From Coleofasciculus sp. B1-GNL1-01 (lineage in GTDB: Bacteria > Cyanobacteriota > Cyanobacteriia > Cyanobacteriales > Coleofasciculaceae): a stretch of 64,000 nt of DNA. The stretch's first letter is position 1. Each line of letters begins with the position of its first letter. Positions 19,605 to 41,803 of this stretch are shown piece after piece. The notes beneath the pieces were generated by a model that was given only the letters and a program-made list of their open reading frames with translations, searched no databases and was not told where the DNA came from. The position numbers and the translations under genes are program-made. Where the stretch lies: NCBI GenBank assembly GCA_040220235.1, contig JAVJTO010000088.1; one strand, 5' to 3'.

Positions 19605-20990
19605 TTAGATAAAAATCGGACGCACAACTTTGAGAACTTCATGTTTGAGTTTAGCAAATAGGGTCATCGATCGCGTTTCGATAGAGACATAGCCTGTCAT
19701 TCCCGGTTTCATCGGATTCGTATGATCATTGGCAATCGAAAGTCGTACTGTCCAGATGGGTTTGATTTGGTTTTCATCGGATTGCAGGGCTGAGGAAATA
19801 TTTTCTACCGCCGTGGTATAGGGTTGTAGTTCTCCTTGTTTGTAGAACTTGACTTGATCGCCTTGGAGGATAAATTTTTCATCTTCTTGGCGAATCTTGG
19901 CAATGACGGTTAAGTCAGATAAATCAACAATTTCCATGATTTTTTCACCCGCAGGATGCCAGGTATTTTCCAGTAAGTCTAAGTCTTCGGTGGTAATGGT
20001 TCCCGTTGTATCGGCGACTAAAATTAGCTGATCTCGTCGGGAGAGTTGGCGCTGAACTTCTGCGGTTAATTCCTGGATTTGTCGTTGACGATCCTTAACC
20101 ACAAGTTGGGCGGCGTTCAGGTTTTCCTGGACGGATATTCTGGCGGCGGTGGCGGCGTTTAATTCCGCTTGGGCGCGGGTTAATTTATCGTTAAGTTCCT
20201 TGACAATGGATTGAATTTGGGCTTGTTTTCTGCTAATTAAACTGGTAAGTTCAGCCAGTTCCCCTTGGCGGCTATAGGTATCATCTAGAAGTTCATCAAC
20301 CCGAATCGCTGGAATTACAGAACTTCCCGCTTCTTGGTTCACGGCTTTGATGGTTTTCAGACGCTGCTGGCGAAGGGTGAGACTGGCAGAAAGTTGTTCT
20401 TTTTTCTGGTAAAGTCCTTGAATATCCCGTTCTAATGCTTGAATTTGGGGGGGAGAATTGCCTTGGCGGATGCTAGCCAGTTCGTGTTGGATTCTATTCA
20501 CCGCTTGACGGGCATTATTTTCTAAGACTAGCATTTCCGCCTGGTTTGCCCGTAAATCTTCGACTAATCGCAAGGCGTCTTGTAGGGCGGATTGGGCTTT
20601 TCCCAGTTCAGTTTGGGCATTAGCGATCGCGCTTTCGATTTCCTGGCTTTCTAGTTGTACGAGTTTATCACCTTTGCGGACAGGTTGATTGGGTTTGACA
20701 TAGATTTGTTTAATCACACCCGCTACTTTTAAGGTAACATCTTGGCGGGCGTTGGAGGTAGAGGTGATATCGGCTTCTCCGCGTACTGAGTGGGGGAATT
20801 CGGGGATAAAGGTAACGTATCCGACACCTGCCATAATTGCGGTAATTAGGAGCCATTTTTTTAGGTTAACAGAAGGGCGTTTTTCTGGTTTGGGCAAAGC
20901 GGGTGAATCTGAGGCGGGTTGTACCGGGGATTTAGGTTGTGGGGGTACAACTTTGAGTTGATTTTGGCGGGAATTAATGGAAGGGTTCAT
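19605..20990 (-). CDS. HlyD-family membrane fusion / periplasmic adaptor protein
   Basis: N-terminal TM, lipoyl half motif GVIKQIYVKPNQPVRKGDKLVQL, long coiled coil, MKPGMTG. Confidence 0.9.
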   Translation of the reverse strand: MNPSINSRQNQLKVVPPQPKSPVQPASDSPALPKPEKRPSVNLKKWLLITAIMAGVGYVTFIPEFPHSVRGEADITSTSNARQDVTLKVAGVIKQIYVKPNQPVRKGDKLVQLESQEIESAIANAQTELGKAQSALQDALRLVEDLRANQAEMLVLENNARQAVNRIQHELASIRQGNSPPQIQALERDIQGLYQKKEQLSASLTLRQQRLKTIKAVNQEAGSSVIPAIRVDELLDDTYSRQGELAELTSLISRKQAQIQSIVKELNDKLTRAQAELNAATAARISVQENLNAAQLVVKDRQRQIQELTAEVQRQLSRRDQLILVADTTGTITTEDLDLLENTWHPAGEKIMEIVDLSDLTVIAKIRQEDEKFILQGDQVKFYKQGELQPYTTAVENISSALQSDENQIKPIWTVRLSIANDHTNPMKPGMTGYVSIETRSMTLFAKLKHEVLKVVRPIFI

Positions 20991-21066
20991 GATGAAATAA
21001 TCCTCAATTTAATTGTTCTGTCGGGGCGGGTGTCATTATTATCATTTCTCACCTTACCCAGAGGTA

Positions 21067-21315
21067 AGCTGTCATGCATTTAAATTGGGTATTAGTAGCG
21101 AGCAAGATGCTCAATGTAGCGAGCAAGATGCTTGATTTAGCGAGCAAGATGTTTGATTTAGCGAGCAAGATGCTTGATTTAGCGAGCAAGATGCTTGATT
21201 TAGCGAGCAAGATGTTTGATTTAGCGAGCAAGATGTTTGATTTAGCGAGCAAGATGCTCGCACTACGGCAAGGATTGCGCCATTATTGATATTAAGGTTT
21301 AAATGCCAAATAGCT
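21067..21315. mobile_element. AGCTG-TIR MITE with internal 21-bp tandem expansion
   Basis: TA|AGCTGTCATGCATTTAAA...TTTAAATGCCAAATAGCT|TA; ~8 units of TAGCGAGCAAGATG(C/T)TTGATT. Confidence 0.85.
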
Positions 21316-21421
21316 TAACAATAATTTTGTTTTCCTGTAGGGGCGGGTTTCACGATTATCCTTTCGTCTCTCACCCTGATGGAACTAAACCCGCCCCGAC
21401 TCAACGCCGCATAAATACCAA

Positions 21422-22861
21422 TCATTGATCGCGGGGGAAATAGAAATAAATCGCCCAGAGAACCAACAAACTCATCGCCAGAGTCGGAATATTGGCAAAA
21501 CTCCAGCCGATGACTCGATAGAGAATAAATCCGAAAACGAATTGCAAATAGAGAAAACTAAATGGGGCATAAGCTGCCAGAATCCAGGCGTCGCGGGGAC
21601 GTTCTTGAATCGGTTTTCGTCGCAGTAGATTGCCGTAAAATTTAAATGAACGACTGCGTAAATTGTTAATTCCAGTTAAGGCAACGGCGAGATAATAGCC
21701 GTCAAATTTAGCCAAAGGATTGAGGTTAAGGGCAACGGTAAATAATGCCGCCCCCATTAATAGATAACTGGTGGTAAATAGCCAACTTTCGGATACAGAA
21801 CCATTCCATAACCAAAGCGCGATCGCGGCAATAATCAGTTGACAGAGAACCCCAGCGGCGACAACCAGAACTCGTTGATAGTGTTTGACTAGACAATAGG
21901 CATCACTGGTATTTGTATACGCCGCAGGCATGAGAAACATGAAAAATACTCCCATTTCTGAGACTTGCAGGTTCAGGTGAGGGACTTGATTGGCATAATG
22001 TTTTAGGGTGAAAGCATGACCGAGTTCATGGAGGGAAACAACCAGTAAGGCGAGGAGGATAAAAGGGAGAAATAAGTTGCTACCTTGTGTGGTGATTAGT
22101 TTTTGTCCAATGGCTAAAATTTCCTGGCGTTGGTGCAGTCCAATGATTAGGGAAACGATTAAAAATAGACCTAATGTGAGAGCAAACTGCTTTGTCCAAA
22201 TCCAGGACAGGTTCTCAACATGACGGCTTAACCAAGGATCAGGATTAAACAGGGGAATGCGGAAATATAAGAGTTGTAAGGGCGTGAATTTACCTCGGCG
22301 GGGTTTCGGGGATTTGGTTCCTTCTAGCATGGCGGTGGCGGCGAGTTGTTGGAGGAGGATTCGCAGTTGATTAGGGGGAATGTTATAGGTTTGGCAGATA
22401 GCATTGGGGGAGAGATGTTCGAGTTCATTAATGACGGTTTTGGTTTGATTGTTGAGTTGGAGAAAGGTTCTATCTTCGGGGTTACGAAGTATCCAATAGT
22501 TGTCGGTGTGTTGAATCCATTGCAGGCTGGATTTGAGATGGGGGGAATTGGGATTTGGGTGGGAGGATGGGGTAGGATTGGGCTGATTTAGGTGGGAGGG
22601 GTCTAGGGTGAGGATGTTGAGGGTGATTAATTTTTGCAGGAGTTGTGTGACGAAATTGGGGGGGAGGGTTTCGCCGAGTTTCTGTTGGATTTGATTGACG
22701 GTATAGTGTCCAGTGAAATAGCGCAAGGCTTGGGCTTCAGTGGGGGAGAATTGATGGTGATGGTGGTTATTTGGGGTGTGGAGGATGAATTGGCTGGAGT
22801 CTCGTTGTTGGCTGAGTTTCCAGTAGGGTGTTATATCGGGACAAATCCAGTTGTTATCCAT
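21422..22861 (-). CDS. M50 (site-2) metalloprotease with two N-terminal PqqD/RRE-like domains
   Basis: HELGH and NLNPLAKFDGYY motifs, multiple TMs; two N-terminal beta3-alpha3-like repeats. Confidence 0.85.
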   Translation of the reverse strand: MDNNWICPDITPYWKLSQQRDSSQFILHTPNNHHHHQFSPTEAQALRYFTGHYTVNQIQQKLGETLPPNFVTQLLQKLITLNILTLDPSHLNQPNPTPSSHPNPNSPHLKSSLQWIQHTDNYWILRNPEDRTFLQLNNQTKTVINELEHLSPNAICQTYNIPPNQLRILLQQLAATAMLEGTKSPKPRRGKFTPLQLLYFRIPLFNPDPWLSRHVENLSWIWTKQFALTLGLFLIVSLIIGLHQRQEILAIGQKLITTQGSNLFLPFILLALLVVSLHELGHAFTLKHYANQVPHLNLQVSEMGVFFMFLMPAAYTNTSDAYCLVKHYQRVLVVAAGVLCQLIIAAIALWLWNGSVSESWLFTTSYLLMGAALFTVALNLNPLAKFDGYYLAVALTGINNLRSRSFKFYGNLLRRKPIQERPRDAWILAAYAPFSFLYLQFVFGFILYRVIGWSFANIPTLAMSLLVLWAIYFYFPRDQ

Positions 22862-23044
22862 AGTTTGTTGGTTTCGGATAAACGTTACGATTGTTGGCGG
22901 ATTTTTTTATGTACGAAGCATTCTTGACAAAATGTTACTACGGATGTAAAAGATTTATTCAATAATGCTTCGCCCAGATATCAACCTCAAAGTGACAAAA
23001 TAGAGGTAAGGATTAGGGGGGTTGGTGATATCACTCGGATGGGA

Positions 23045-23200
23045 AAACCTAACCCCCCCAGCCCCCCTTCCCTGCAAGGGAAGGGGGGAGTATTACTTGA
23101 TAATTGGGGAGTATTACTTGATGATCGGGGAGTATTACTTGATGATCGGGAACTCTTACTCCCCTCTCCTTGCAGGAGAGGGGTTGGGGGAGAGGTTTCC
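23045..23200. repeat. Palindromic repeat element with internal 21-bp tandem (GGGGAGTATTACTTGATGATC)
   Basis: CCCCTTCCCTGCAAGGGAAGGGG and CCCCTCTCCTTGCAGGAGAGGGG hairpins flank three tandem units. Confidence 0.7.
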
Positions 23201-23274
23201 CTTCTAGTATTGCGAGTGTTGGAGGGTAGATACATTGTCTTGATCATAGCTACAACTGATTATGTAAAATTTCT

Positions 23275-23445
23275 GTAGGGGCGGGTTTAGTCTTTAATTT
23301 TGATGTTATTGATAACGTTTCAACAAAACCCGCCCTGGTTCAAAATGGAGGTGTGTTTTAGGCGATCGCTCTTTTGATCAGGAATTAGTGCAAACCGGGA
23401 GGGGGAGGGCGATCACCGGGTGGAGATAGAGGAGGTGCGATCACA
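23275..23445. repeat. Single diverged copy of the ~190-bp REP/HIP1 unit
   Basis: Near-identical to the units at 24998-25575. Confidence 0.8.
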
Positions 23446-23668
23446 TTTGAGGAAAAGACCGAAACCGGGTTGATTCTCTCCGTGTAAATTTGGTGCGTTA
23501 CGTCGGGCTTTTTAATTGACTGATTAAGTCCGAAATTTATTCCCGACTAACGCACCCTACCGCTAAGGGAACAGGGAACAGTAAGGGTTTGAGGGCGATT
23601 TACTTGCACTTAATAAGCGTGCCGTTTTCTTTTGTCCGACCACTTATGTTCACTCAATTTGCCAGGGT

Positions 23669-24877
23669 TTAATGGTTTTCTGTAACAACAGTTTTAATCG
23701 GGACAGCAGGAGATTGAAATTGATGACGCCGAAGCGTTTGGGTTAAGGTTGTTAGGGTTTGGCTAAACTGAGCGAATTCAAATCGTTGAATGGTTTCCTG
23801 TCGCAATAGTTCGGGTTGAAATAGTAGGGGATTGGGGTAAGTCCCTTGTAAAATTTGTCGGAGATTTCGGGCAATTGCTGATTCATTTAAAGGGTCAACT
23901 AAACAGCCTAATTTGCCATGAACTAGGGGATCAACGGCTCCATCTTTGTTTCCGGCTAAGACGGGTTTTCCACAGGCGAGGGCTTCTAAATAAACAATGC
24001 CAAATCCTTCTCCTTGGCTGGGCATGGCAAAGATATCACAGAGGTTGTAATGGTCGCACAGTTCGGCGTCGGGGACGAATCCGGCTAAGGTGACAGACTG
24101 TTGTAAGTTAAGCTGGGCGATGAGGGCTTCAATTCGGGGACGATCATCTCCTTTGCCTGCCAGAATATAGTGGATGTTGGGGATGTGGCGGCGGATTTCG
24201 ACTAAGGCGCGGAGAATTTGGTCGTAGCCTTTGTAGGATGCAGAACGCCCTAGGCGGGTGACGGTGAGGATGACGGGTTGGTCTTTTGTGAGTCTGTAGC
24301 GTTGGAGTAGGTAATCGGGTTTGGGGGTGGGTTGGAACTGAGTCGCTGCAAAGGTGTTGGGTAGAACGGAGATTTGGGCGGGGTTGAGTCGTTGTTCTTG
24401 GAGCAGGCGATCGCGGGTATAATGACTGACGGCAATTATTTTGTCAGCATGGCGTAATGCTTTCTGGCGCAGGGGATGAGAGAGGTTCCATCCTTCTAAA
24501 CCGTGGACGATAACCCAGTAAGGGGTTCCGGTTAAACATTTGAGCCAGTAGCAGGGGATGCTGTAGTTGAGGTGGGTGGTGATAAGGGCGGTGGGTTGTT
24601 GCCAGATACCGAAGCTGATGGTTTTGAGAGTGAGCAGAAGGGTTTGTAAGAATCGAGACCAATTGCCGAGGCAGTGAAAGCGGGTTTGGCTTAAGAATGG
24701 GGGGTTGTCGGGAGTTTCGCGATCGTATTTGAGAAAGATATCATAGTTAGCTTTGGGATACAACTGCTGTAAGGCTTGTAGGAGGAAGATTGAGTAAACT
24801 TGTACTCCACCTTTGAAGCCGAAGATGTTAGGAAATAGTAAAAAAAAGTGGTGGTTTTGGGGTCGGGTTTTTAACAT
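23669..24877 (-). CDS. Glycosyltransferase family 4
   Basis: KGGVQVY, YKGYD, FAMPSQGEGFGIVYLEALACGKPV. Confidence 0.93.
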   Translation of the reverse strand: MLKTRPQNHHFFLLFPNIFGFKGGVQVYSIFLLQALQQLYPKANYDIFLKYDRETPDNPPFLSQTRFHCLGNWSRFLQTLLLTLKTISFGIWQQPTALITTHLNYSIPCYWLKCLTGTPYWVIVHGLEGWNLSHPLRQKALRHADKIIAVSHYTRDRLLQEQRLNPAQISVLPNTFAATQFQPTPKPDYLLQRYRLTKDQPVILTVTRLGRSASYKGYDQILRALVEIRRHIPNIHYILAGKGDDRPRIEALIAQLNLQQSVTLAGFVPDAELCDHYNLCDIFAMPSQGEGFGIVYLEALACGKPVLAGNKDGAVDPLVHGKLGCLVDPLNESAIARNLRQILQGTYPNPLLFQPELLRQETIQRFEFAQFSQTLTTLTQTLRRHQFQSPAVPIKTVVTENH

Positions 24878-24997
24878 TTTTAGGGGTATGGGGTTGTATT
24901 CTGATAGGTTGTGATGTTGGACGTTAATCGGGGGAGTTGGGCGATCTGCTGTAGGCTCTACTCGCTTCGCTATCGCAGGGTGGGGATAGAGAAGGTG

Positions 24998-25575
24998 CGA
25001 TCGCGTGGGAGTCCAGGTATTTGTAGGGGCGGGTTTAGCCGTTTAATTTTGATGTTTGTGATCACGTTTTAACAAAACCCGCCCTGACTCAAAATGGAGG
25101 TGTGTGTTTTAGGCGATCGCTCTTTTGATCAGGAATTAGTGCAAACTGGGAGGGGGAGGACGATCGCATTCTGGGAATAGAGGGGATGCGATCGCGTGGG
25201 AGTCCAGGTATTTGTTGGGGCAGGTTTAGCCGCTTAATTTTGATTTGTGTGATAACGTTTCAACAAAACCCGCCCTGGCTCAAAATGGAGGTGTGTTTTA
25301 GGCGATCGCTCTTTTGATCAGGGATTAGTGCAAACCGGGAGGGGGAGGGCGATCGCATTCTGGGAATAGAGGGGATGCGATCGCGTGGGAGTCCAGGTAT
25401 TTGTAGGGGCGGGTTTAGGCGTTTAATTTTGATGTTTGTGATCACGTTTCAACAAAACCCGCCCTGGCTCAAAATGGAGGTGTGTTTTAGGCGATCGCTC
25501 TTTTGATCAGGGATTGGCGCTAACCGGGAGGGAGAGGGCGATCGCACGCTGGGGATAGAGGAGGTGCGATCGCCT
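24998..25575. repeat. Three tandem ~190-bp units (GTAGGGGCGGGTTT...AAACCCGCCCT plus several HIP1 sites)
   Basis: GTCCAGGTAT at 25011, 25202 and 25391. Confidence 0.9.
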
Positions 25576-25625
25576 TTTTTTCGCCAGTTAGTACATCAGA
25601 AAAACCTTAGTAGTAGTTAAACCCA

Positions 25626-28600
25626 CTAAAAATCAATATAGTTCCTGGGGTTTTGTGCTGAGTTATTGACACGGATTTCAAAATGGAGGTGATGCCCAGT
25701 GGAGTTACCTGTATTACCTATATTACCAATGTGAGTTCCTGCATTTACTGTCTGTCCAGGACTAACATTGATACTGGACAAGTGTGCATAGCGCGTCTCT
25801 AGACCATTACTGTGATCGATTTTGATGTAGTTACCATAACCATCATTCCAACCATAACTTGCTATGACAACTGTACCGCCTTTAGCTGCTTTAACAGGTG
25901 GAGTAGTTCCATAAGTACCTAAATCAATCCCATTGTGCCAATTATCTCCACCCCATGCAGATTCATCGCGCCAACCAAATTCACTTGTTACCGGATAACC
26001 GGGAAGAGGATGTTGCCAAGATGTAGGTTGTGGTTCGGGATCAGGAGGAGGTGTAACAGGTGTTCCTGGACCCGTTGTATAACCGACAGGTAAATAAACT
26101 GACATCCCAACTTGCAGTCGCCGCGCTTCCGCCTCAGTAAACGTACTACCATCGGCTTTGGTAATTTCCCGCCAGCGACTACCATCGTTTAAGTATCGCT
26201 GGGCAATCCCCCAAAGGGTATCTCCAGACTTAATAATATACTGTTGCTGTTCACCGGGACGGGCGGGAGGTTCATTGAGCGAATTGTCGGGGCTACCATT
26301 AACAATCGCCGCTGAAATCCACTCATTGCTTCCCTGTATTTTGTACCATTTGTCTGTTGCTGTTCCTAAGCTAGGGAAGGAAATAAACTCACCCGTCGCG
26401 ACTTGATCAAAGGTAACTACTTCACCATAGTTTCGGGTTCCCACAAGAGAATTCCCTGTACTCGGTCCAGAGCGAACATTTGCGCCAATGGTGGCAATGA
26501 TTCGACCTGTAAAGGAAATGGGAGTATTATTATCTCCAGGGTTCTCGCTAGGTGGTGGAGCAGGTGCAGGAACTTCTTGGGGAATCTCAATGGTACTACC
26601 CGGATAGATAAGATTGGGGTTAGCAATCCCATTATGTTGAGCAATAAAATTGTAGTAAGTGGCAGAACCATTCCCCATTGTCCGGAGAGCAATTTCCGAG
26701 AGCGTATCACCGGATTGAATGGTATAAGGAACCCAGTCATAGTATTTACCCATAAAGGGAGTCGATACTGCCCGTTCCCCTGGTGTAACTTTTCCTTCCC
26801 CACTCCAACTTTCAGGAATGAGACTGGAGGGAGCATAATGCGTTTCTGGCTGCGTTGCCTTCGCCAGATTTACAGCCGCCGCCATGTTCAGCAACCCTGT
26901 ACCCGTTTCTGAGTTCCAGTTGGGTGTGCCTAAATCCGTTGCTGTATCCTTGAGAATATCAATCACTTGACGATAACTCAGTTCAGGATTCGCCGCCCAA
27001 ATTTGCGATGCGGCTCCCGTCACATTGGCAGTCGCTACCGAGGTTCCCGCCATTGTTCCTACACCTTCATCCGTCAATGATAGGGTGGGATTGTCAATTG
27101 TCCCCCCGTTAGACATAATGTCTAAACCGTTACCGTAGCTCGAAAAGTCACTCCGCTCAAATCCTTTCCAAACTGATGTATTCGGGTCAAACTGTTCGGC
27201 TGCACCAACCGTAATAATATTGTCAAACTCTTGAGAGGCTTGTCCCAACGCGGACATCACCCCGCCATCATTTCCCGCCGCCACCACCAGCATGACATTA
27301 TTTTGACGCGCATACTCAATCGCGGATCGTTCTTGAGGTGTAAACTCATAACGAGTGGTAACGTTTCCATCCGCATCAATTTGGGTTAAATCCATACTCA
27401 GATTAACCACAGCATTGGGTTGACCCGATTCTTGAGCCGCATCAACAAATTCAACTAATGATTCTGCCCATTGACCGGAACCCACAGCACGCCCAACCCA
27501 AATTGGCGCATCATCATTAATCCCTTCAACGCCAATATCGTTATCTTGAGTCGCCCCAATTATTCCTAACACATGAGTGCCATGTTCATTCCCCTCACCA
27601 GCTTCCATCAGAGGGTTATTATCGCCATCAATCCGGTCTTGCCCTAAACTGATTCGGCTATAGTCAATATCAGGATTATTGTCACTGAAACCTGTATCAA
27701 TAATGCCGACTAACGGCTGATTTTCCTGGGGAAACTCATTCCGGACAGGTTCAGCCAGTTCAGGATCTGTTGTGGGTTCGGCGATAATTTCACTGGTGTT
27801 AACAGGTTCATCGATAACAACATCCGTTGATTCTTCAGTCGTGGGTTCGGTGACAATTTCACTATTGTTAACAGATTCATCGATAACAACATCCGTTGAT
27901 TCTTCAGTTGTCGGTTCGGTAACAATTTCACTCTCATCGACTGGGATGTCATCGGTTGGCGATTCCCCGACTAATTCATCCGTTAATAGTCCGCCATCAT
28001 CAGGCGTATCCGGCGTAATATAAGGTTCGGCATAATCAATCAACGCTTGACCCAAATCCGTCTCCCGCCAATCCTTTCCAGACTCAATCACCTCATCCAT
28101 TAAAGCCGCTTCACCCGTCGCCCCGCGCACCTGGAAAATAACATCGTTATAATCCCCATCCGACTTCGTATCCACCCGCAAATCTTCCATCACAAACGTG
28201 CTACCATCCCCCGTGACATCGGCAATTTGCCCGACATGAAACCCATCATCTGGATTCGCTGTCGCCATGGAAAATAGGGGACGCGCCGCCCCTCCCACAT
28301 CGGGATTATCAAACACCCGTTGTACTGTATTATTGGGAACCAGCATGAAACCAAATTCATCCCCTGGACGCATTTGGACTGTCTGAACTCCCAAATACTC
28401 CCCAGAATTTCGGTCACCTTCTCCTAACTCTCCAACGAACCGCGCCCCCTCAGTTTGGTCAGATATCACCACATGACCTAATTCTGAATCACTCAATGCA
28501 CGAGAGGCGGCTTCCTGGATAAATTCTTCTGAACCGGGTTCAAATTCATCCATGCCATCTAAGCTAAAGATAGCCAGTTCGCCTTGATAACCCCCGCCAT

Positions 28601-29162
28601 CAAAGAGGAAATCAATGCTTACTTCCCCAGTTTCACCGACGGTGAATGTGCCAGACTCAAAGGTAGGATTGATAAAGGGAATGTCTTCGAGTTGATCGGT
28701 TAACAGTGGTGTCTCTGGCGTCGTTTCGGCACTACTATCAGCCGTATCTTCCAGGGTTAAATCGACATCCCCATCCATATTGCTAGAGGTTTGACTTTCC
28801 CCGTCTGAGATATCCCAATCCTCACCCAATTCTGGGAGTTCAGGGGTATCAATATCCATTGTTGCTAAGTCGGGTGTCTCATCGATGCCATCCACTAAAC
28901 CACTAGGAGTGTACATGGGTTCGAGGATAAAGGCTTGTAGCAATATTGGAGACTTGTCATCCAGGGATTGGTGATCAGGGGGTGATTTTGACCCGAATAA
29001 ACCATTCCAAAAACTCGTCAGCCATCGAAAAACACCATTGTGCGATCGCGCCTTGGTGCTGGATGCTGGAGATGGTTGAGTGGCTGTTGGTTTGCTTGTC
29101 GATACCTCTAAACGGTTCATAGAATTCGTTTCCTTAAAATCATGATCGAGAACTATGTCCAT
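25626..29162 (-). CDS. Large multidomain protein: LEP-motif N-terminus, DUF4114-like domain, S8 subtilase, LysM, SH3, LysM, M23 peptidase
   Basis: [16 protein letters not shown]8 triad IIDTG/HGTHV/GTSVA; Lys[14 protein letters not shown] and [23 protein letters not shown]23 HNGIDL/YAHLS/HLHFE. Confidence 0.9.
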
Positions 29163-29196: not shown

Positions 29197-29257
29197 AGGT
29201 ATCAACTTCAATCGGGTTATTGCTATCAAAAGCTATCAGAAGGTATCAGGAGGTATC
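29197..29257. promoter_or_regulatory. Phased direct-repeat array (A/T)G(G/C)TATC with 10-bp period; putative operator
   Basis: Boxes at 29221, 29231, 29241 and 29251, plus one at 29197, just upstream of the S8-M23 gene. Confidence 0.55.
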
Positions 29258-29300
29258 ACAACCCAACTTTGGGGAGGTTCATTTGCTCATCGGTTGAGTA

Positions 29301-30004: not shown

Positions 30005-30937
30005 TTACATCCGACGACGTTTGCGAAGTTGACTAACAAAAATTAAGCCTACGGTGCCTAAACCAAAAACTGTACCTGGTTCAGGTACAGATTCACAGTA
30101 ATCCCGTTCGCAAATACCGGATTTGTCAAATTTAAAGGCAATATTGTGATTGCCATCAAACTGATTTAAGTCGTAACCTGCCGTTATTAAATCAGAATCA
30201 CTCAGATATATAATATCGGCAATAAACTCTCCCGATGCAATAGAGTTGAGACTTTGACCTTGATCAAAATAGGTTGTTGTGGCGGGTAAATCCCCGAAAC
30301 TGGGTTCACATAAACCGGGAATACAGTCTCGGGTAACCACAGCATTATTATAGGCTTCTATGCTGCTAAAACCATTGTTTTCTCCTGTAACACTTTTGGC
30401 GGTAACATTGGCGTATAGACCCACTTCGGGTGCGCCGGAATCACTGTTGGGAGAGAAACGAACGGCAAATAAATCACCCGCGTCACTGGCGGTGGTAAAG
30501 TCTTGATCAGTCAAGTTGATGAATAAATCACCCCAACCCGTATTCCCGTCATCCGCGTCAGTTCCCTCTACACCGGTTAAGGGCATATTGCCATTGAGGA
30601 CAACCAAAATGCTATCAACGGTTTCTTTGACAGACATCCCGTAGAGTTCATAGCGATTATCTTTGCCGCCAACGATATCGCCATCAACGCCATCATTGGG
30701 GGAATCTTGACTATGATCCCAGGGGGCGTCATCACTAGGTTTGGGTCTGGGTTTTTTCCCCGGATCAAGTGCGCCGCCATCGTTGAGACATTCTTCAAAG
30801 ATACTGAGAATGGAGCCTTCATTTAAGGCTCGTAATGTGGCGGCTTGGGCGGCTTCTCCTGTGGGCAAAATTAAGCCCATTGCAGCGATTAAACTAATCA
30901 GTTTTGCGCTAATTAATAGTGTATTACGATTAGACAT
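30005..30937 (-). CDS. PEP-CTERM (exosortase-sorted) surface protein, XDD3-like
   Basis: Signal peptide; YELYGMSVKET..GWGDLF; C-terminal VPEP-TM-RKRRR. Confidence 0.88.
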   Translation of the reverse strand: MSNRNTLLISAKLISLIAAMGLILPTGEAAQAATLRALNEGSILSIFEECLNDGGALDPGKKPRPKPSDDAPWDHSQDSPNDGVDGDIVGGKDNRYELYGMSVKETVDSILVVLNGNMPLTGVEGTDADDGNTGWGDLFINLTDQDFTTASDAGDLFAVRFSPNSDSGAPEVGLYANVTAKSVTGENNGFSSIEAYNNAVVTRDCIPGLCEPSFGDLPATTTYFDQGQSLNSIASGEFIADIIYLSDSDLITAGYDLNQFDGNHNIAFKFDKSGICERDYCESVPEPGTVFGLGTVGLIFVSQLRKRRRM

Positions 30938-31294
30938 GGGTTTCTCCTTAAACTGTTATGGAGTCAGGGCTTTAGCCCTAAATTCTGTTGGGTTTCATGA
31001 CGGGGCTGGAGCGAACCTGGTGCGTTACGCTTCGCTAACGCACCCTACGACTAGAATACTGCATAGTGTACAGGGGTTAGCGTTTTATTTGTAAACCGAT
31101 ACAAACTCAGGTTCGTATTTGTCATCTGTCATTTTTCCTTTGTCCTTGGAAAATGGGAAATCCGGCGAAATTAGGCTTGCCTCGCTCCAATTCGTGGATT
31201 TTCTGACTATCCTTATTAAAGAGTAAACTTACTGCCCTTAACCCCCCGCAACCTATCAATTTGCCCGCTAACCTAGCGGTGGGGAATTTACAGA

Positions 31295-31379
31295 AAGTAT
31301 CAAAAGGTATCAAAAGGTATCAAAAGGTATCATCATCTTAAGTCAGGGTGGGTGGTGTGGATAAGGTATCGGTGGTATC
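31295..31379. promoter_or_regulatory. Phased direct-repeat array AAAAGGTATC (10-bp period) in a divergent promoter region
   Basis: Boxes at 31295, 31305, 31315 and 31325, plus 31364 and 31373. Confidence 0.55.
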
Positions 31380-31432: not shown

Positions 31433-32770
31433 ATGTTGTGGGATGCATTTCTAGAACGAGTCGCGGATACTCATGATTTGTTTGCAGAAGATGAGCGACA
31501 AGCGTTCTTGGTTCGGTTTGATGAGCGAAATTTACCCCGTTCGGATATCCAGGTGGCACAGGATTTGAATATTAGTGAAGTGACGCTGCAACGGCGACTG
31601 GGGAAGGGGGTGTATACTCATTTGCTGAGGAGTTGTCCTCAGCTTAATACGGATAAAAAGGGAAAATTTAAGATAGTCCGAGATTGGTTAAAAAAAGGGT
31701 ATGTTCTCTGTCAAGGGAATGGCACCACGGGGATGAATAAAACGGCGGTAAGTTCACCCTCTCCAATCGCCAATTATCCTTATGTAGAACGCCCCCCAAT
31801 TGAATTGTGTTGCTATCAAAGTCTTTTTGCACCGGGCGCGTTACTTCGGATTAAGGCATCTCGGCAAATGGGAAAGACAGAGTTAATGGCAAGAGTTTTG
31901 AATTTGGCGAAACAACAAGGTTATCACCCAGTCTATTTAAATTTATGTCAACCGGAAGAATCGGTAGTCAAAAATCTGGATCAATTTTTGCGTTGGTTGT
32001 GTATGAGTGTCAGTCGTCAACTGCAAAAACCGCTGCAAATTCAGGAATATTGGGATGTGGATCTCAGTAGTAATGATAACTGCTCGGCTTATTTTCAGGA
32101 CTATTTATTAGAGCAAATTGATAGTCCCTTAGTTTTAGGCTTGGATACGGTTGATCGCCTCTTTCCTCATTTAGCGATCGCTCAAGACTTTTTTGGTATG
32201 CTACGGGCATGGCATGAGGATAGTAAAATTCTGGATAATTGGCAGAAACTGCGGTTAATTGTCTCTCATTCGACGGAAGCTTATATTCCCCTAGATATCA
32301 ATCACTCGCCGTTTAATGTGGGATTAACTGTTTCTTTGCCAGAATTTACCGCCGAACAAGTCACTGAGTTAGCCCAAAAGCATGGACAGGTATTCAATCA
32401 GGCTGATGTCAGTTTATTAATGAATCGGGTAGGCGGACATCCCGGCTTAATTAAAAAAGCGTTATTTGAACTCAAAACCTTACAGAATACGACTCTAACA
32501 CAGCTATTAAATGAAGCGGCGACAGATTCTGGTATTTATGGAAATTATTTACGCAAGATTTGGCTAGAATTGCAGGAAAATCCAGCATTAATTCCGGCGC
32601 TAAAAAAAGTAGTGGCTGCCAGCAATAGCGTAGAATTAGCGTCAAAACTTGCCTACCAGCTTGAAAGTCTGGGATTGGTAGATTTAAACGGAAATAGAGT
32701 AACAATCAGATGTGAGCTTTATCGTGACTATTTTGGCTCTCGCTTGGCGAATTTTGGGGAGGGTTTGTAA
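31433..32770 (+). CDS. HTH-like domain + AAA-like (AAA_35-type) NTPase
   Basis: DIQVAQDLNISEVTLQRRL HTH; YVERPP, ASRQMGKT, LGLDTVD, SPFNVG. Confidence 0.88.
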   Translation: MLWDAFLERVADTHDLFAEDERQAFLVRFDERNLPRSDIQVAQDLNISEVTLQRRLGKGVYTHLLRSCPQLNTDKKGKFKIVRDWLKKGYVLCQGNGTTGMNKTAVSSPSPIANYPYVERPPIELCCYQSLFAPGALLRIKASRQMGKTELMARVLNLAKQQGYHPVYLNLCQPEESVVKNLDQFLRWLCMSVSRQLQKPLQIQEYWDVDLSSNDNCSAYFQDYLLEQIDSPLVLGLDTVDRLFPHLAIAQDFFGMLRAWHEDSKILDNWQKLRLIVSHSTEAYIPLDINHSPFNVGLTVSLPEFTAEQVTELAQKHGQVFNQADVSLLMNRVGGHPGLIKKALFELKTLQNTTLTQLLNEAATDSGIYGNYLRKIWLELQENPALIPALKKVVAASNSVELASKLAYQLESLGLVDLNGNRVTIRCELYRDYFGSRLANFGEGL

Positions 32771-32880
32771 GCTGTCATGCATTTAAATTGGGTATTAGTA
32801 GCGAGCAAGATGCAAAGCCTGCGGCATGGCTTCGCTAAACCCACTACAAGGATTGCGCCATTATTGATATTAAGGTTTAA
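32770..32880. mobile_element. Truncated AGCTG-TIR MITE
   Basis: Same sequence as the other copies; lacks the right end; overlaps the stop codon of the preceding gene. Confidence 0.7.
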
Positions 32881-33036
32881 GCAACAGAGAATAATAACAA
32901 ATGACCAATGACACTTAAAATCCTAATCATCCTATCTTGATGAGAGAACTTTCCTTGTCTGTGTAATCAGTGTCAATAAGCTCTCACCTCCTACCCCTAT
33001 CTCCCCAATAAATCCGTGAAATCAGTGTTTTGACAA

Positions 33037-35526
33037 ATGACCAATGACTATCATGTAGGCGGAAGCTTACCACCAAATGCAACAAGCTATGTCATGCGTT
33101 CAGCAGATAAAGAACTCTATGAGGGATTAAAAGCCGGAGAATTTTGCTACGTGCTAAATTCCCGACAAATGGGCAAATCCAGCTTACGAGTAAACACCCA
33201 AAAACGCCTGGAAGCCGCAGGAATTGCCTGTGCGGTAGTTGATTTAACTCGAATTGGAAGTCAGGCGAATGAACAACAATGGTACAAGGGAATTGCTTAT
33301 CGTTTAGTCAGTGAATTACGACTGGCGAATCGCGTCAAATGGAAACTGTGGTGGGATGAACATGACTCCTTATCACCTGTACAGCGGTTGGGAGAATTTA
33401 TTGAAGCGGTTGTCCTAGACATTATCCCTCAAAATTTAGTCATTTTTATCGATGAAATCGACAGTACCCTAAATTTATCCTTCCCCACCGATGATTTCTT
33501 TGCCTTAATTCGATCCTACTATAATGGACGAGATACGAAGCAACGCTATCAGCGTTTAACCTTTGCCTTGTTAGGAGTAGCCAGCCCATCGGATTTAATC
33601 CAAGATAAAACGAAAACACCGTTTAATATTGGCAAAGCGATAGAATTACGGGGGTTTAAACTCAATGAAGCGCTGATTTTAACCAAAGGATTTGCAGGAA
33701 GGGTTAAGCATCCACGAAAAGTGCTGGAAGCGATATTATATTGGACAGGGGGTCAACCCTTTCTTACCCAAAAATTGTGTCATTTGGTACAACTGTCCTG
33801 TGACTCTCAGTTAGACAAAATTATCGACAAGGGAAGGTTGAGTCAAGTTATCGATTGCTGCGATAATTTTAGCCGTAAACCTCTAAGGATAAATCCGGCG
33901 AATTTCCCTAGATTAGGGGGTTTATCAAGAAGGCTTATGAGTAAAATTCGCCCCGACAACAATGAACGGGAATTCGTGAAACAAATCGTGCGATCGCAGA
34001 TTCTGCTAAACTGGGAATTCACCGATCATCCCGAACATCTGAGAACGATACGCGATCGCATCCTCCTTAGTCACCATGGTTCAATCCCCTTACTTCGCCT
34101 CTATCAGCAAATCCTACACCGAGGAGAAATTCCCACCGATGAGAGTCACACCCAACAGGAATTGCTACTCTCTGGATTAGTAGTTCAGCGTCAGGGTAAA
34201 CTCAGGGTTCATAACCCCATCTACAAATCCATCTTTAATCGCCAATGGGTCAAATCCCAACTTCCAGCACAAAATGAGCATTCTGTCAAGACCCCAGCTT
34301 GGACAATTCCGATCCTGAGTGGAGTTGTCAGCGTGGTGGTGATTGGCGTGCGATCGCTTGGCTTATTGCAAGGGTTAGAATTACAAGCCTTGGATGGATT
34401 AATCCGATTGCGCCCAACCGAAGCCTTAGACTCGCGCCTCTTGCTGGTGAAAATAACCGAAGCCGATATCAACCAATACCGCTATCCGTTATCCGATGAC
34501 ATTCTAGTCCAATTATTGCAGAAACTGGAATCAATGCAACCGCGAGTAATCGGCTTAGACATCTATCGAGATAACCCCATTCATTATCGCGATCGTACAG
34601 TAGAATCGTCCTTCGATTTACCCACCTATCTACGCCAAACCAATCAGGTGATTCATATCTGTAAAGTTAGCAGTGAAAGCGATCAAGGAACCGCCTCCTT
34701 CCCCAATCTTCCCTGGCAAAATCTCGGCTTTAGTAACGTATTAGTGGACAGCAACAACACCGAAACGGGTTCACTACGCCGCCAGTTATTATATCAAAAA
34801 GTCCCTTCAATTTCACCCTGTCCCACCCCCTACGCCCTCAACGTTCAACTCGCCTTTCGCTATTTAGCCGCCGAGAAAATTTTACCCAAATTTACCGCCA
34901 AAAACGGCAACTTACAGCTTAAGGATGTTATCTTTACCGATTTAAACCCCCGTGCTGGCGGATATCAACGCTATGATTCTAGAGGTCAACAAATCCTCCT
35001 CAACTACCGTGCGGTTCAACCCATCGCCCAATCCGTAACCTTAACCGAAGTTCTCCAAGGTAAAATTAATCCCCAATGGGTCAAGAATCGAGTAATATTA
35101 ATAGGCGTTACCGCCACCAGCATCAAAGATAGCTTCTCTACCCCCTACGGTGAAATGCGCGGCTTAGAAATTCAGGCGCATGGGGTGAGTCAGATACTCA
35201 GCGCGGTACTCGATCAACGTCCCTTAATTCAACCGGGGAATTTCTGGAGTGAAGTATTGTGGATTGGCGGATGTTCTTTCATCGGCGGACTATTGATTCA
35301 GTTAATCCCCAAACGCCCCTACCAAATCCTCGCCTTATGTACAGCATTAGTTTTATTATCAGGACTCAGTTTAATTCTATTAATTCACGGTTATTGGATA
35401 CCCCTAATCCCATCCGCGATCGCCTTAATGGTTTGTAGTAATGTTTGTAGTAATGTTTGTAGTAAGGGCTTTAGCCTTTTACCAGCCTCAAATCGTGACG
35501 ACACAAGTATAACAAAAAACAAATAA
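33037..35526 (+). CDS. AAA-like NTPase + TM + CHASE2 sensor
   Basis: [28 protein letters not shown]2 [23 protein letters not shown]; three C-terminal TMs. Confidence 0.9.
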
Positions 35527-35542
35527 AAAGGACAAACAACAA

Positions 35543-36283
35543 ATGACAAACAAACTATTCAACCTTGCCATTATACCCCTTCTAATCATCGCCCAGAAAT
35601 CCCCCCTCGACGCCCTCATCTTCAATCAACCACCACCCCCACCGGATAAAGACACACCGGGACAACAAGCGGATTCAGGAACCCGTGGACCCTGTGACGC
35701 ACAGCCCTCCGCAACCGATAAGCAATTAGTCGCCTTTGTCCCCACCATAGAAAAAACCCGGAACAGCTTACCAGAAACTCATGTTTGGGGATTAACCCAG
35801 AGTCAACATCCAACATTTTGGTTTTATCTTCCCGCCACAGCAGCATCGGCTCAAGTCGCCCAATTTAGCCTCGAAAATGAAGCAGATTACCAATCCAACT
35901 TTCAATTCAATCTCCCCCAAACTCCCGGAATTATTAGCCTAGCCATCCCCACCAATGAACCCCCACTAGAACCCGGACAATGGTATTATTGGTCACTGAA
36001 ACTCTATTGTCAGACTCAACCCTCAACACCTAACTTTTTTGTTGATGGCTGGATTCAACGGGTACAAAATGACACACCCTTTAACAGTGATACGCCCCAA
36101 GATAAAATAGTCATTTATGCTCAAAACGGTTTATGGTTTGACACCATCACCGAACTAGCCAACCTGCACCGCCAAACACCCCAAGAAACGGAGCCAGCCT
36201 GGGCAGATTTACTAGAATATATCGGTTGGGAATCCCTTGCTGAAAAGCCAATTCTACCCTGCTGCACCCTAGAAAAACAGTAG
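35543..36283 (+). CDS. DUF928 domain secreted protein
   Basis: GTRGPC, GLTQSQHPTFWFYLP, YAQNGLWFD, WADLLEYIG. Confidence 0.9.
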   Translation: MTNKLFNLAIIPLLIIAQKSPLDALIFNQPPPPPDKDTPGQQADSGTRGPCDAQPSATDKQLVAFVPTIEKTRNSLPETHVWGLTQSQHPTFWFYLPATAASAQVAQFSLENEADYQSNFQFNLPQTPGIISLAIPTNEPPLEPGQWYYWSLKLYCQTQPSTPNFFVDGWIQRVQNDTPFNSDTPQDKIVIYAQNGLWFDTITELANLHRQTPQETEPAWADLLEYIGWESLAEKPILPCCTLEKQ

Positions 36284-36405
36284 AAAAACTCCTCACATCT
36301 GACAACGACAAACCCTCTCTGCGTACCTCTGCGTAAAAAAAACATAATCATAATATCAATAACTAGGAGAGTAGAAGTTCAGGGAGGTAATGAGTATTGT
36401 CAGGT

Positions 36406-36762
36406 TCAAATGGGTAAGTAAATAATTTGGTCTTGATATTCGTCATCTAAAGCTCCTTCAGCAATAAGTATTAGTTCATTGATTGTTTCACCAATACCCA
36501 TATCAGGGTTTAAAATAAAAATTCCTGGTACGTGGCGACCTTGACTGAGGTGATCAGCTAAATGCACGGGCATTGAAGTACGATTATTAGTAACTAGAAT
36601 AAAGTTATGCTCTTCACACCAAATTAGGATTTCTGGATCTAATGTGCTTTTCACCGGAGTAGAGGGTTCTCCAACTGCCCGGATCACCAACTTTGGTTCT
36701 CGTCGTCGCAGTTGATTAATATAGATTGGATTCATATTTTCATCCATTAGATACTTGAGCAT
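36406..36762 (-). CDS. DUF5615 PIN-like toxin
   Basis: LKYLMDEN, DPEILIWC, ILVTNN, HVPGI; downstream of a DUF433 gene. Confidence 0.85.
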   Translation of the reverse strand: MLKYLMDENMNPIYINQLRRREPKLVIRAVGEPSTPVKSTLDPEILIWCEEHNFILVTNNRTSMPVHLADHLSQGRHVPGIFILNPDMGIGETINELILIAEGALDDEYQDQIIYLPI

Positions 36763-36769
36763 TATTTCT

Positions 36770-37093
36770 CTAATTTATTGCCTCGCTTTCCGCCTTTAAT
36801 TGCATGAGTTTTCTCACGACAGGTGATGGATTACGTCGTTGCTCTTGCCGCATTTTTTGCCCCCACTCTAACCAATCTTCTATATAGTTACTAACTGTTT
36901 CTTGATTATGCAGATAATAAAGAATTGTGGCATAAACTTGTTCTAGGGAAAGAGTAGTATAAATTTTGGCAATTTCTTCTGGAGTACGAGCGCGATAAAT
37001 GTACTCATACAAGATTGTCTCAATTCCGATCCGCGAACCTTTAAGCCTTATGTCATTGGGAGCGAGAATATTAAAATAGTCTTCGAGTTGCAT
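36770..37093 (-). CDS. DUF433 antitoxin
   Basis: IRLKGSRIGIETIL, TPEEIA, LSLEQVYATILYY. Confidence 0.87.
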   Translation of the reverse strand: MQLEDYFNILAPNDIRLKGSRIGIETILYEYIYRARTPEEIAKIYTTLSLEQVYATILYYLHNQETVSNYIEDWLEWGQKMRQEQRRNPSPVVRKLMQLKAESEAIN

Positions 37094-37300
37094 ATTGGGC
37101 TACCCGCTATTCAAAGTTAAAACGCAAAATGTAGTATTACTATACCATTTTATCCTCTTATAGCGCTACGTGCTAGAGAATAGGCAATAGCCAATAGTGA
37201 TTATAGGGCATGGCAATGCCATGCCCCTACCAAAGGGTAGAGATCATTAATTTGATTAGGTAGGGACACGATACTATCATGCCCTCATCTAGCGATAAAT

Positions 37301-40300: not shown

Positions 40301-40348
40301 ACAGAAACCAATCAGACCATATTTAAAGAATAAATTCATAAGAGTCAT
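37301..40348 (-). CDS. Secreted TPR + CHAT (caspase-like) protein
   Basis: Signal peptide, TPRs, HFATHG, LVLSAC, HPYYWAPFVLIGNW. Confidence 0.93.
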   Translation of the reverse strand: MTLMNLFFKYGLIGFCLTLLIGLGQPYLIGQSVLSTEPPRILSQSPIVDSKTLIEQGQGYYQNGQFIEAVSLWQDAVSLLADEGNQLQQARVLSYLALGFQELGKWQEAKDAIALSFNQLQSLPDSPDKSLILAQVLNNQGHLQLALGNAADARQTWEKVHRLYTRLGDETGSIGSLINQAQAQQSLGQLREAFKTLTLATIRLQRQPDSLLKFTAWSRLGELVRVVGNSNLSDPNWLSLKQSFQFNTLTNLEQSKYLLDKSLTLAQSLDNTEAMAEAYFQLGNWAKDTYHHQRSLYERTRPSLQNIQPVLDAVAQAGDYYQQAITLSNSSLITLQSQLNYLSVLFNTQHWLLKQRHWSNAQTWWQEKLVPQLPNLTQVQAKITTLPPNHTAIDCQIQFAQLLVTLNQIKETVNQNQVQVPTIYRHSIWTRLEGLLTATFDKNQQIIQQTQDVEDRRSEAYVTGISGKLYESTQNLDNAQELTNQAIQISQSIQAWDIAYQWQWQLGRLRKAQGNIEGELGAIRSERTRSAIAAYQAAVNTLNTIRQDLATLNPDVRFSFRDEVEPIYRELIDLLLRDETPSPQNLIQAREVLAQLQLAELENYLQEACASSDPALIDQIVDEHAPNTAVIYTILLDNRLEVILKLPQPSECNKINDDNCQHCRDVACNVSTPWRSKINPSHSKSNPTEILAGATLQHHRVKLSPRQVEERVDQLRTQLTNPQRTSRYSQAIQNTSQPIYNWLIAPFESQLKANRINTLVFVLDGALQTIPMAVLWDGNQYLIEKYAIALNREPQLLAPVPLSQYPLQTLAFGLSQVRSGFAPHKSFQSLANVEAELSQIPSDVTLLNDAFTSQALQNQINARPFSIVHFATHGQFSSNPNETFILAWDKRIQVNELSHYLKSREESLPDPIELLVLSACQTANGDNRATLGLAGIAVRAGARSTIATLWEVNDQSTTAFIQLLYQQLTNSTEPMSKAEAIQQVQKAFLTNANYKHPYYWAPFVLIGNWLSLFPG
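38333..38362. repeat. Perfect 30-bp REP-like palindrome inside the CHAT coding sequence
   Basis: TGTAGAGACGTTGCATGCAACGTCTCTACA; relatives are intergenic at ~29970 and ~46755. Confidence 0.85.
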
Positions 40349-40466
40349 TCAACCTTGTTCGTAATTGCGCTTGTAATTGCGCTTGTAGTTGCGCTTGTAG
40401 TTGCGCTTTAGCGCCAGTTCATCGTCACGCTTTCCCCCCAATAGCGACAGAACAAGAAATAGCTTA

Positions 40467-40794
40467 AGCTGTAATGCATTTAAATTGGGTATTAGTAGCA
40501 AGTGGGTATTAGTAGCAAGTGGGTATTAGTCGCAAGTGGGTATTAGTCGCAAGTGAGTATTAGTAGTGAGTGAGTATTAGTCGCAAGTGGGTATTAGTCG
40601 CAAGTGAGTATTAGTAGTGAGTGGGTATTAGTCGCAAGTGAGTATTAGTAGTGAGTGAGTATTAGTCGCAAGTGGGTATTAGTCGCAAGTGAGTATTAGT
40701 AGCGAGCAAGATGCAAAGCCTGCGGCATGGCTTCGCTTAACGCACTACAAGGATTGCGCCATTAATGATATTAAGGTTTAAATGCCGAACAGCT
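40467..40794. mobile_element. AGCTG-TIR MITE with internal 17-bp tandem expansion
   Basis: TA|AGCTGTAATGCATTTAAA...TTTAAATGCCGAACAGCT|TA; ~13 units like GTATTAGTCGCAAGTGG. Confidence 0.85.
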
Positions 40795-40901
40795 TACCAC
40801 CAACAAATATAGAATGGCGATCGCAGAACTCCTCTCTCTACTCTACACATAACATAATATGATAAAATCACAAAAGTATTCTTCTTGCCCAAAACTAAAA
40901 T

Positions 40902-41177
40902 ATGCGGCTTCAACCCATAAGCACAGAACATATTGCCATCGATCCTGACTATTGCTGCGGTAAACCTCGCATTGCTGGTACAAGAATGCCAGTAGCTACT
41001 ATTACCAAACTCTATCTAGAGATGGGAGAATCCCTAGAAGATATTGCTCAGGAGTATGATTTACCCTTAGCATCCGTTTATGCTGCTATTGCGTATTATT
41101 ACGATCATCGGGAAGAAATTGACCGTCATACAGCCGAAAGTGAAGCTTATGTTGCACAAATGAAGCGTAATAAGTAG
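40902..41177 (+). CDS. DUF433 protein without an adjacent PIN partner
   Basis: IAIDPDYCCGKPRIAGTRMPV, VYAAIAYY. Confidence 0.85.
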   Translation: MRLQPISTEHIAIDPDYCCGKPRIAGTRMPVATITKLYLEMGESLEDIAQEYDLPLASVYAAIAYYYDHREEIDRHTAESEAYVAQMKRNK

Positions 41178-41720: not shown

Positions 41721-41803
41721 ACGGAAGGGAGATAATTCAAAGCCTCTCTCCTCGCAGGAGAGAGGTTTGGAGAGAGGTTTTCCAGATCCCGACTAAAAGT
41801 AAG

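Follow-up and report, generated by a model that had tools for sequence, protein, structure and literature searches.

How might a large enzyme without an obvious secretion signal leave a cyanobacterial cell when its gene lies among those of an intramembrane protease and a periplasmic adaptor, and no transporter gene is found nearby? The question is raised by four genes at positions 19605..29162 of a 64,000-nt stretch of DNA (hereafter, the window) from contig JAVJTO010000088.1 of Coleofasciculus sp. B1-GNL1-01 (assembly GCA_040220235.1). A first-pass annotation, made from the nucleotide sequence alone, described these genes as co-oriented and proposed that the RRE-M50 protease recognises and cleaves a leader of the enzyme and acts with HlyD and a distal TolC in its export; four minus-strand open reading frames (ORFs) are indeed present at these positions. 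On balance, the evidence tips towards an RRE-M50/HlyD export module, a stripped-down cyanobacterial branch of such systems, in which the leader would be read and cut and the cargo would be moved out via HlyD and TolC. The features on which this reading turns are as follows.

21422..22861, minus strand: 479-aa intramembrane zinc protease of the site-2 (M50) type with tandem RRE domains; H278-E279-x-x-H282 and D387 intact
22601..22861, minus strand: RRE-like domain 1 of the protease, residues 1-87 (PqqD 5sxy, Z 8.4, root-mean-square deviation 2.7, 83 residues aligned)
22319..22549, minus strand: RRE-like domain 2 of the protease, residues 105-181 (lasso B1 6jx3, Z 10.4, root-mean-square deviation 2.0, 76 residues aligned; TbiB1 5v1u, Z 9.4)
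25626..29162, minus strand: cargo, 1178 aa, with leader, acidic linker, DUF4114, S8, LysM, SH3b, LysM and M23 (Pfam)
28899..28931, minus strand: leader core [11 protein letters not shown], cargo residues 78-88 (motif search)
19605..20990, minus strand: cognate HlyD-type periplasmic adaptor, 461 aa, HlyD_D23/HlyD_3, with an N-terminal membrane anchor at ~47-65 (Pfam)
20940-20957, minus strand: subfamily-specific cytoplasmic peptide L-K-V-V-P-P, HlyD residues 12-17, ahead of the anchor (comparison)

The two N-terminal repeats of ~70 aa in the protease, which the first-pass annotation took to be RRE/PqqD domains, do fold in this way. In a predicted model built with a 100-sequence alignment (pLDDT 90.9; 45 for the single-sequence model), two N-terminal domains of ~80 aa each, with three strands followed by three helices, precede a helical membrane core. 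A fold search of this model against 48,161 solved chains matched both domains to RRE structures, including tandem-RRE ThcOx and leader-bound structures of lasso-peptide B1 proteins, while RseP, MjS2P and SpoIVFB (Z about 8) were its matches for the core; a Foldseek search of the model returned nothing at or below E 0.001. The catalytic motifs are intact, as had been claimed (HELGH at residues 278-282 and NLNPLAKFDG at 379-388), and H278, H282, N381, D387 and G388 are invariant in 100 M50 homologues; of 98 M50 proteins in the loci, all have HExxH and 95 have NxxPxxxxDG. This protease scores 21.4 against PF02163 (cut-off 27.2, exceeded by relatives), and its best NCBIfam match is the daptide RRE-protease NF041824 (149 bits, E 1.6e-43, cut-off 300). 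Domain 1 was lost in one lineage; domain 2 appears to be the likelier leader-binding domain because it is the one that single-RRE relatives retain.

When the protease was modelled in complex with the leader, the score was 0.58, the best of three controls reaching 0.00; of 157 solved complexes 116 attain that mark, as do 2 of 215 mismatches. The runs agree in at least 74% of contacts, with a partner pLDDT of at least 46, and no interface is given. The pass may be due to likeness to solved RRE-leader complexes. Complex modelling thus lends weak support to the claim that the RRE reads the leader, and cleavage and export go beyond it as conditional parts of the proposal. We consider a partnership of leader and M50 protease to be very likely, and cleavage of the leader by the protease appears likely. 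Distant RRE-M50 proteins (L046-L050 in G022, G085, G061, G046 and G079, non-photosynthetic relatives) adjoin lipoprotein-type subtilases, with no HlyD seen, and possibly represent a separate peptide-processing system.

The leader core falls near residue 80 of the cargo (~28896-28935), where the first-pass annotation had located it. The tag F-I-L-E-P-[IM]-[LY]-T-P-S is carried by two ORFs in this genome, one beside each M50 gene; of all 19,644 ORFs, only these two match the motif or an HMM (hidden Markov model) derived from it, and both adjoin the genome's only two M50 homologues. At the second locus (contig C54), the genes of a 990-aa RRE-RRE-M50-HlyD fusion and of a leader protein with 1256 aa or more are divergently transcribed; the two cargos share their N-terminal 750 residues at 65% and differ beyond them. 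The consensus of 65 distinct leaders is [TS]-F-I-L-E-[PKR]-I-[LIVY]-T-P-S, with some positions fixed by the search pattern; a basic stretch usually precedes the leader and an acidic one follows it. Leader clades include FILEPILTPS, FILEKIVTPS and FALDDIITPS. The cargo in the window contains these domains:

28122..28373, minus strand: DUF4114 domain, cargo residues 264-347 (PF13448, E 4.6e-25)
26895..27719, minus strand: subtilase S8 domain with catalytic D489, H527 and S708 intact (PF00082, E 3e-34)
25647..25937, minus strand: C-terminal M23 peptidase with HxxxD (1076-1080) and HxH (1158-1160) intact (PF01551, E 2e-31)

The cargo is accordingly a predicted multi-domain protease and peptidoglycan hydrolase, the half with M23 being exchanged among close relatives. 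Its translation probably starts at Met15 (position 29120), yielding 1164 aa, since close relatives agree only from there on. The reported lack of an obvious hydrophobic Sec signal was upheld by a hydropathy scan of the first 100 residues, in which no 11-mer is more hydrophobic than the motif region itself, at 1.66 (61 PEP-CTERM proteins encoded in the same genome have a median of 2.02). Among 52 non-redundant leader ORFs of at least 900 aa, some of which end at locus boundaries, the median length is 1,610 aa and the longest reaches 4,216 aa or more; just 2 have a hydrophobic stretch scoring above 1.8 at the N-terminus, and none has the RTX nonapeptide, the only kind of C-terminal signal looked for. 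The one leaderless DUF4114 protein of the same genome (C167), which served as a positive control, has a C-terminal RTX region with four nonapeptides, as if leader and RTX repeats were alternative export signals on DUF4114 proteins.

Most of the 17 leader proteins that were scanned join S8 to M23, lysozyme, CHAP, LysM, LGFP, PA14, lectin, cadherin or Calx-beta domains, dockerin is also among the domains of leader cargos, and some of the 17 lack S8, DUF4114 or both. The cargos are subtilase, cell-wall-hydrolase or adhesin mosaics of 1,000-4,200 residues. The leader was considered as a subtilase propeptide, a role that was rejected given that it is kept on cargos without S8; its presence on cargos without S8 or DUF4114 ties it to export or processing rather than to any single enzyme domain. 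An immunity gene behind the cargo was likewise sought and rejected, as no recurrent small partner gene is seen among the locus ORFs. Three further loci encode DUF4114 cargos (L027 7521-13745, L146 333-4796 and L031 11597-18229), two of which contain calpain (C2) and precede a gene for a PpiC-like foldase (similar to TIGR04500, below cut-off); in the L027 and L146 cargos the leader is merely degenerate, at the extreme N-terminus.

The association of protease and leader extends across the phylum. The survey covered 401 genomes, of which 36 match the M50 protease at E 1e-15 or better (29 strong matches, one RRE-only fragment and six distant ones); the seven non-strong matches (distant G022, G046, G061, G079 and G085, the G195 fragment and the G025 fusion) were counted among the 372 negatives. 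The large neighbours of strong M50 matches share the same N-terminal motif. A model of 21 leaders, to which 17 genomes supplied sequences, finds 26 of the 401 genomes, namely 25 of the 29 with a strong M50 match and one of the 372 others, so that co-occurrence with tagged cargo, a neighbourhood check named beforehand, was borne out. Twelve M50 genomes supplied no sequence to the model, and 8 of these have a leader, mostly at distant loci. Draft G173 contains eight leader matches (L016, L061, L085, L090) and G327 five (L076-L080), and one M50/HlyD pair may serve many dispersed cargos in these two genomes. As a held-out set, 80 metagenome loci were fetched after the survey, 37 of them with at least 5 kb upstream; these 37 comprise 20 with a leader, 6 with cargo domains and no detected leader, and 11 with neither.

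The adaptor is tied to the protease and, separately, to the cargo. The cognate HlyD forms a distinct subfamily (E 1e-89 or better; other adaptors 1e-31) that is found in 19 of the 401 genomes, all of them M50-positive. An HlyD-like part is present in 80 of 81 homologues of at least 680 aa (among 150 representatives), and this repeated M50-HlyD fusion places M50 at the foot of the adaptor, the usual position of the ABC transporter. In the related G008, G091 and G311, HlyD lies apart from M50, yet no more than 3 kb from a leader gene, which ties it to the cargo independently of M50. A start of the form L-x-V-V-P is found in 37 of 47 split HlyDs and in 5 of 15 readable fusions, but in none of the 18 other adaptor-like proteins that this genome encodes; L-K-V-V-P-P may be a docking peptide. 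Binding of this peptide by RRE domain 1 was rejected, given that single-RRE M50 proteins adjoin HlyDs with a similar peptide. Across 116 loci, the slot after M50 holds HlyD (54), a fused HlyD (4), a PEP-CTERM gene (30) or another gene (11), or leaves no room (17), and HlyD and a PEP-CTERM gene never both follow M50; replacement of HlyD by PEP-CTERM in this slot may reflect merely one or two events. L167 and L172 (8066-12492) contain an 860-aa tandem-RRE M50-HlyD fusion (32% identity) after a 570-aa ORF without a detected leader, a possible different type of cargo.

No component that would drive export has been found in the loci. Within the 64-kb window no ABC exporter, RND or TolC gene was seen, as had been noted for the immediate neighbourhood; the nearest ABC exporter (C88:72638) is more than 40 kb from the cargo, and none adjoins either module copy of this genome. 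In a motif-based scan, no ABC exporter recurs in the loci: there is one ABC-motif ORF in 43 metagenome loci of at least 10 kb and four in 40 genome loci, of mixed kinds. Five long exporters of HlyB size each have their own adjacent HlyD. A second SecA was not found in this genome (G000, completeness 100) or in G008, G029, G091, G229 and G025, each of which has one SecA_DEAD match of canonical size, and DUF3467 in this genome gives only a match below cut-off. The distal TolC of the original proposal has a counterpart in the single clear TolC of the genome, encoded on another contig; its use by the module is a conditional part of the scheme.

In the scheme that we propose, the cytoplasmic RRE domain or domains of the inner-membrane M50 protein would bind the basic/FILEPILTPS leader of an acidic, signal-less cargo, and the zinc site would remove it. 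In genomes with the cognate HlyD, such as this one, M50 would stand below the adaptor in place of an ABC transporter, and export of the cargo via HlyD and the shared TolC of the genome would take a single step, so that peptidoglycan hydrolase domains would bypass the cell's own wall. One-step export would explain the presence of wall hydrolases without a recurring immunity gene. Candidate energy sources include the proton-motive force, a folding ratchet and the ordinary SecA. As polymorphic proteases, wall hydrolases and adhesins, the cargos would act outside the cell, probably against neighbours or on the mat matrix. For the ABC-free passage through M50, HlyD and TolC, the case is slightly favourable. 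The boldest form of the scheme, to which we would not commit ourselves beyond a tentative suggestion, is that the protein joining a leader reader to a site-2 protease serves as the inner-membrane translocase of a distinct secretion route, whose minimal form would be the cyanobacterial branch, consisting of two proteins and a shared TolC, with no dedicated ATPase, a portable ten-residue tag, wall-degrading cargo of 100-450 kDa and adaptor-free survivors.

Several observations weigh against the export module as formulated here. No ATPase belongs to it, and the genome contains 21 ABC-membrane matches, several without an adjacent HlyD. The module genes are separated by spacers of 430-810 bp with dispersed repeats inside, and given these spacers a single operon is not established; across loci, the cargo lies on the opposite strand to M50 at 38 and on the same strand at 13. 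Among the complex models that reach the mark, scores at or under 0.60 are given by only 18 of the 157 solved complexes and by both mismatches. The leader is undetected in four of the 29 M50 genomes (G083, where genes are broken, G093, G089 and G005; three were re-searched), the adjacent cargo of G089 having at most a degenerate one. Conversely, G047, a one-contig genome without an M50 match, has a leader on an ORF of 68 aa. In this apparent relic (L089 6591-11488), the short ORF, whose leader is near-perfect, comes after an XDD3-like gene and before a separate ORF of 916 aa. Because the genomes are related and the loci include duplicates, the co-occurrence counts overstate independence and are to be read as a pattern, not as a statistical test. 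Finally, the partnership with HlyD, supported by adjacency and repeated fusion, is not obligatory: the cognate adaptor is missing in 10 of the 29 M50 genomes, 9 of which keep leader cargo, and a fuller search of five of the HlyD-less genomes gave best E values of 1e-22 to 1e-29, against 1e-89 or better for cognates. One locus of the HlyD-less type is on plasmid2 of Nostoc sp. HK-01. HlyD is therefore dispensable in some lineages and the core is M50 plus the tag. In a FastTree phylogeny of the protease core, rooted on a distant homologue, the HlyD-less M50 proteins are nested among HlyD-linked and fused ones, and the absence of HlyD looks like one or two losses.

The missing motor invites the explanation that the RRE-M50 protein is a gatekeeper, which reads and removes the leader and holds HlyD, and that a distal ABC exporter moves the chain, much like a peptidase-containing ABC transporter that has been split. 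The module has no ATPase, orphan ABC exporters are present in the genome, and the HlyD-less lineages need something else anyway. However, no ABC exporter recurs in the loci, the five exporters of HlyB size already have their own HlyD, the cargos lack RTX repeats, and the covalent M50-HlyD fusions put M50 itself at the position of the pump; a borrowed pump therefore seems unlikely to us. A motor could alternatively be supplied by housekeeping SecA/SecYEG, which together with M50 would deliver the cargo to the periplasm, with HlyD-TolC as an optional extension, in which case the cargo could remodel the cell's own wall. In favour of such an inner-membrane step, related loci of other phyla contain a secondary SecA (as described in PMC4452313), M50 and leader persist without HlyD, many cargos carry peptidoglycan-binding or -cutting domains, and a PEP-CTERM gene occupies the place of HlyD at 30 HlyD-less loci. 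Yet the nesting of HlyD-less proteases within HlyD-linked and fused ones makes the trans-envelope form look ancestral, the leader has no hydrophobic core, and Calx-beta, cadherin, dockerin, PA14 and lectin domains on the cargos are typical of outside proteins, all of which makes delivery to the periplasm alone quite improbable.

Two further readings dispense with export through the module. The resemblance of the M50 core to SpoIVFB and MjS2P, along with the absence of an encoded motor, would suit a switch in which the leader keeps the enzyme inactive or tethered until a signal prompts M50 to cleave it, in the manner of SpoIVFB with pro-sigmaK, followed by release through lysis or vesicles; wall hydrolases could then serve programmed lysis or filament breakage. 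Such a switch leaves unexplained the restriction of the cognate HlyD to M50 genomes (19 of 19), its repeated fusion and its placement beside cargo, and adhesin-type cargos make little sense inside the cell, so that we give it a low chance. That the genes are chance neighbours in a repeat-rich variable region might be suggested by the wide repeat-filled spacers, by the GT4 glycosyltransferase gene between cargo and protease, which comes and goes, and by the 11 of 37 metagenome loci without cargo nearby. The same partners recur at the second locus of the genome in divergent order, and the genome-wide co-occurrence (25 of 29 against 1 of 372) makes coincidence scarcely credible.

The export module is neither a daptide cluster nor a classical type I system. 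Type I systems consist of HlyB, HlyD and TolC, and in their peptidase-containing ABC transporters a C39 domain removes the N-terminal leader at the inner membrane. The module resembles them in the HlyD-type adaptor, the presence of TolC in the genome and the large, acidic, signal-less cargo; it differs in having no dedicated ABC gene or RTX repeats, and in the proposed RRE reader and M50 cutter in place of C39. Site-2 proteases of the YydH type, which process RiPPs (peptides made on the ribosome and modified after translation), act beside ABC transporters. The fusion of an RRE to an intramembrane HExxH protease is shared with MpaP/DapP (NF041824) and YydH/LiaK (NF058609); unlike the daptide proteases, the module here has giant proteins as putative substrates instead of short peptides, and a link to HlyD. 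None of the DUF-RRE, dehydrogenase, aminotransferase, methyltransferase and short precursor genes of daptide clusters recurs among the locus ORFs. MpaP, the RRE-fused site-2 protease of daptides, has been described as the leader remover (10.1101/2023.03.08.531785).

The closest precedent is an ABC-less export machine with M50 as a possible pore, proposed in 2015 by Kamneva, Poudel and Ward for loci that combine M50/HlyD, HlyD, GAF-HlyD and a secondary SecA_DEAD, with or without OEP, in PVC bacteria, Proteobacteria, Nitrospirae and Chlorobi (PMC4452313); its main text mentions neither cyanobacteria nor PqqD. Both systems have an M50 membrane protein tied to HlyD and no ABC gene. In the cyanobacterial loci, by contrast, there is no second SecA (six genomes), one adaptor replaces three, and no GAF-HlyD or TolC is present: each locus has only one HlyD-like gene, and GAF-HlyD is absent from the loci (GAF elsewhere in the genome was not searched). 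The module here further differs in that it usually has two RREs, M50 and HlyD are mostly split, HlyD is sometimes lost, the leader is another one, and the cargo of 1,000-4,200 aa is rich in enzymes. The nearest outside relatives of this M50 protein are M50-HlyD fusions of 700-850 aa. In the named proteobacterial plasmid loci, a giant cargo is accompanied by TolC and three adaptors, and neither ABC nor SecA is annotated in the stretches examined; in Variovorax CP063167.1 (L093 21925-30555), a type II secretion gene set directly follows the giant-protein/TolC/three-adaptor locus.

The first-pass annotation equated the tag with LEPR-XLL, an identification that the NF012209 model does not sustain: neither the cargo nor 21 leaders match it (cut-off 17 bits), and two of three proteobacterial control leaders do so at 15-16 bits (E 0.006 and 0.012), just below the cut-off. 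A profile comparison of the two motifs (hhalign), made against three sequences only, did not reach significance (probability 0.4%, E 0.15). The two types are alike in their N-terminal position, the basic residues before the motif, their presence on giant signal-less proteins beside homologous M50/HlyD genes and an F-x-L-E-P element in the same register (FALEPRFMFDA and FILEPILTPSG), and one cyanobacterial leader variant reads GLEPRLTPS; the leader here differs in its second half, I-[LIVY]-T-P-S, with a conserved Pro. The main text of the RRE-Finder paper (PMC7470986) contains no M50 or HlyD, and no paper on the cyanobacterial module was found in the accessible literature, most subscription journals being outside its scope. 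The cyanobacterial branch is conserved and is an apparently undescribed variant of the proposed M50/HlyD export system, with a newly defined leader and a variable set of enzyme cargos.

The ABC-free M50/HlyD machine was put forward for other phyla, and the cyanobacterial branch makes the question tractable: it has two dedicated proteins, a short, sharply defined leader and assayable cargo activities, and its natural variants (fused, split, with HlyD beside the cargo, with HlyD lost, with one or two RREs) separate the steps. If the scheme holds, RRE domains would serve as receptors of secretion signals too, beyond small-peptide chemistry, site-2 proteases could act as a translocase or gate, and mat and crust cyanobacteria would export a range of wall hydrolases that has gone unrecognised. 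Engineering, too, would profit from a short N-terminal tag by which very large proteins are exported.

The remaining features lie between and around the module genes.

23669-24877, minus strand: GT4 glycosyltransferase (PF00534; Pfam)
23278..23448, no strand: dispersed 171-nt repeat on one flank of GT4 (family D1; 7 genome matches of at least 100 nt)
25029..25577, no strand: three more copies of the same repeat, with a 189-nt period, on the other flank of GT4 (families D1 and D3)
30005..30937, minus strand: PEP-CTERM surface protein of the XDD3 family, immediately upstream of the cargo (NF041930, 199 bits, cut-off 80)

The glycosyltransferase, which the first-pass annotation listed among the four genes, was ruled out as a core component by its absence between cargo and M50 in two close relatives (L006 and L007); dispersed repeats lie on both of its flanks. 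Close relatives of the M50 protein at 92-96% identity come from Coleofasciculus metagenome-assembled genomes, and GT4 orthologues of 60-66% identity adjoin the cassette in G173, G229 and G395. In 4 of 4 RNA-labelled runs GT4 is uncovered, in agreement with its absence in relatives and no more than that, as these runs are contigs with flat depth that cannot indicate expression. GT4 would thus be an optional passenger that possibly modifies the cargo, and the flanking repeat copies are a likely recombination site for its gain and loss. Short tandem repeats with 21-nt and 10-nt units occupy the spacers at 21075-21279, 23085-23160, 29214-29268 and 31278-31342, and their summed depth is high in related samples, which points to elements dispersed across the genome. 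PEP-CTERM genes recur near the module as XDD3, choice-of-anchor E, choice-of-anchor C-like and short forms (L030, L036, L039, L071-L074, L082, L094, L133, L143 and others). Further along the window, 31433-46117 contains a pair of AAA_35 proteins (checked by Pfam), followed by genes that we take to be CHASE2-like, DUF928-like, CHAT-like and filamentous-haemagglutinin-like.

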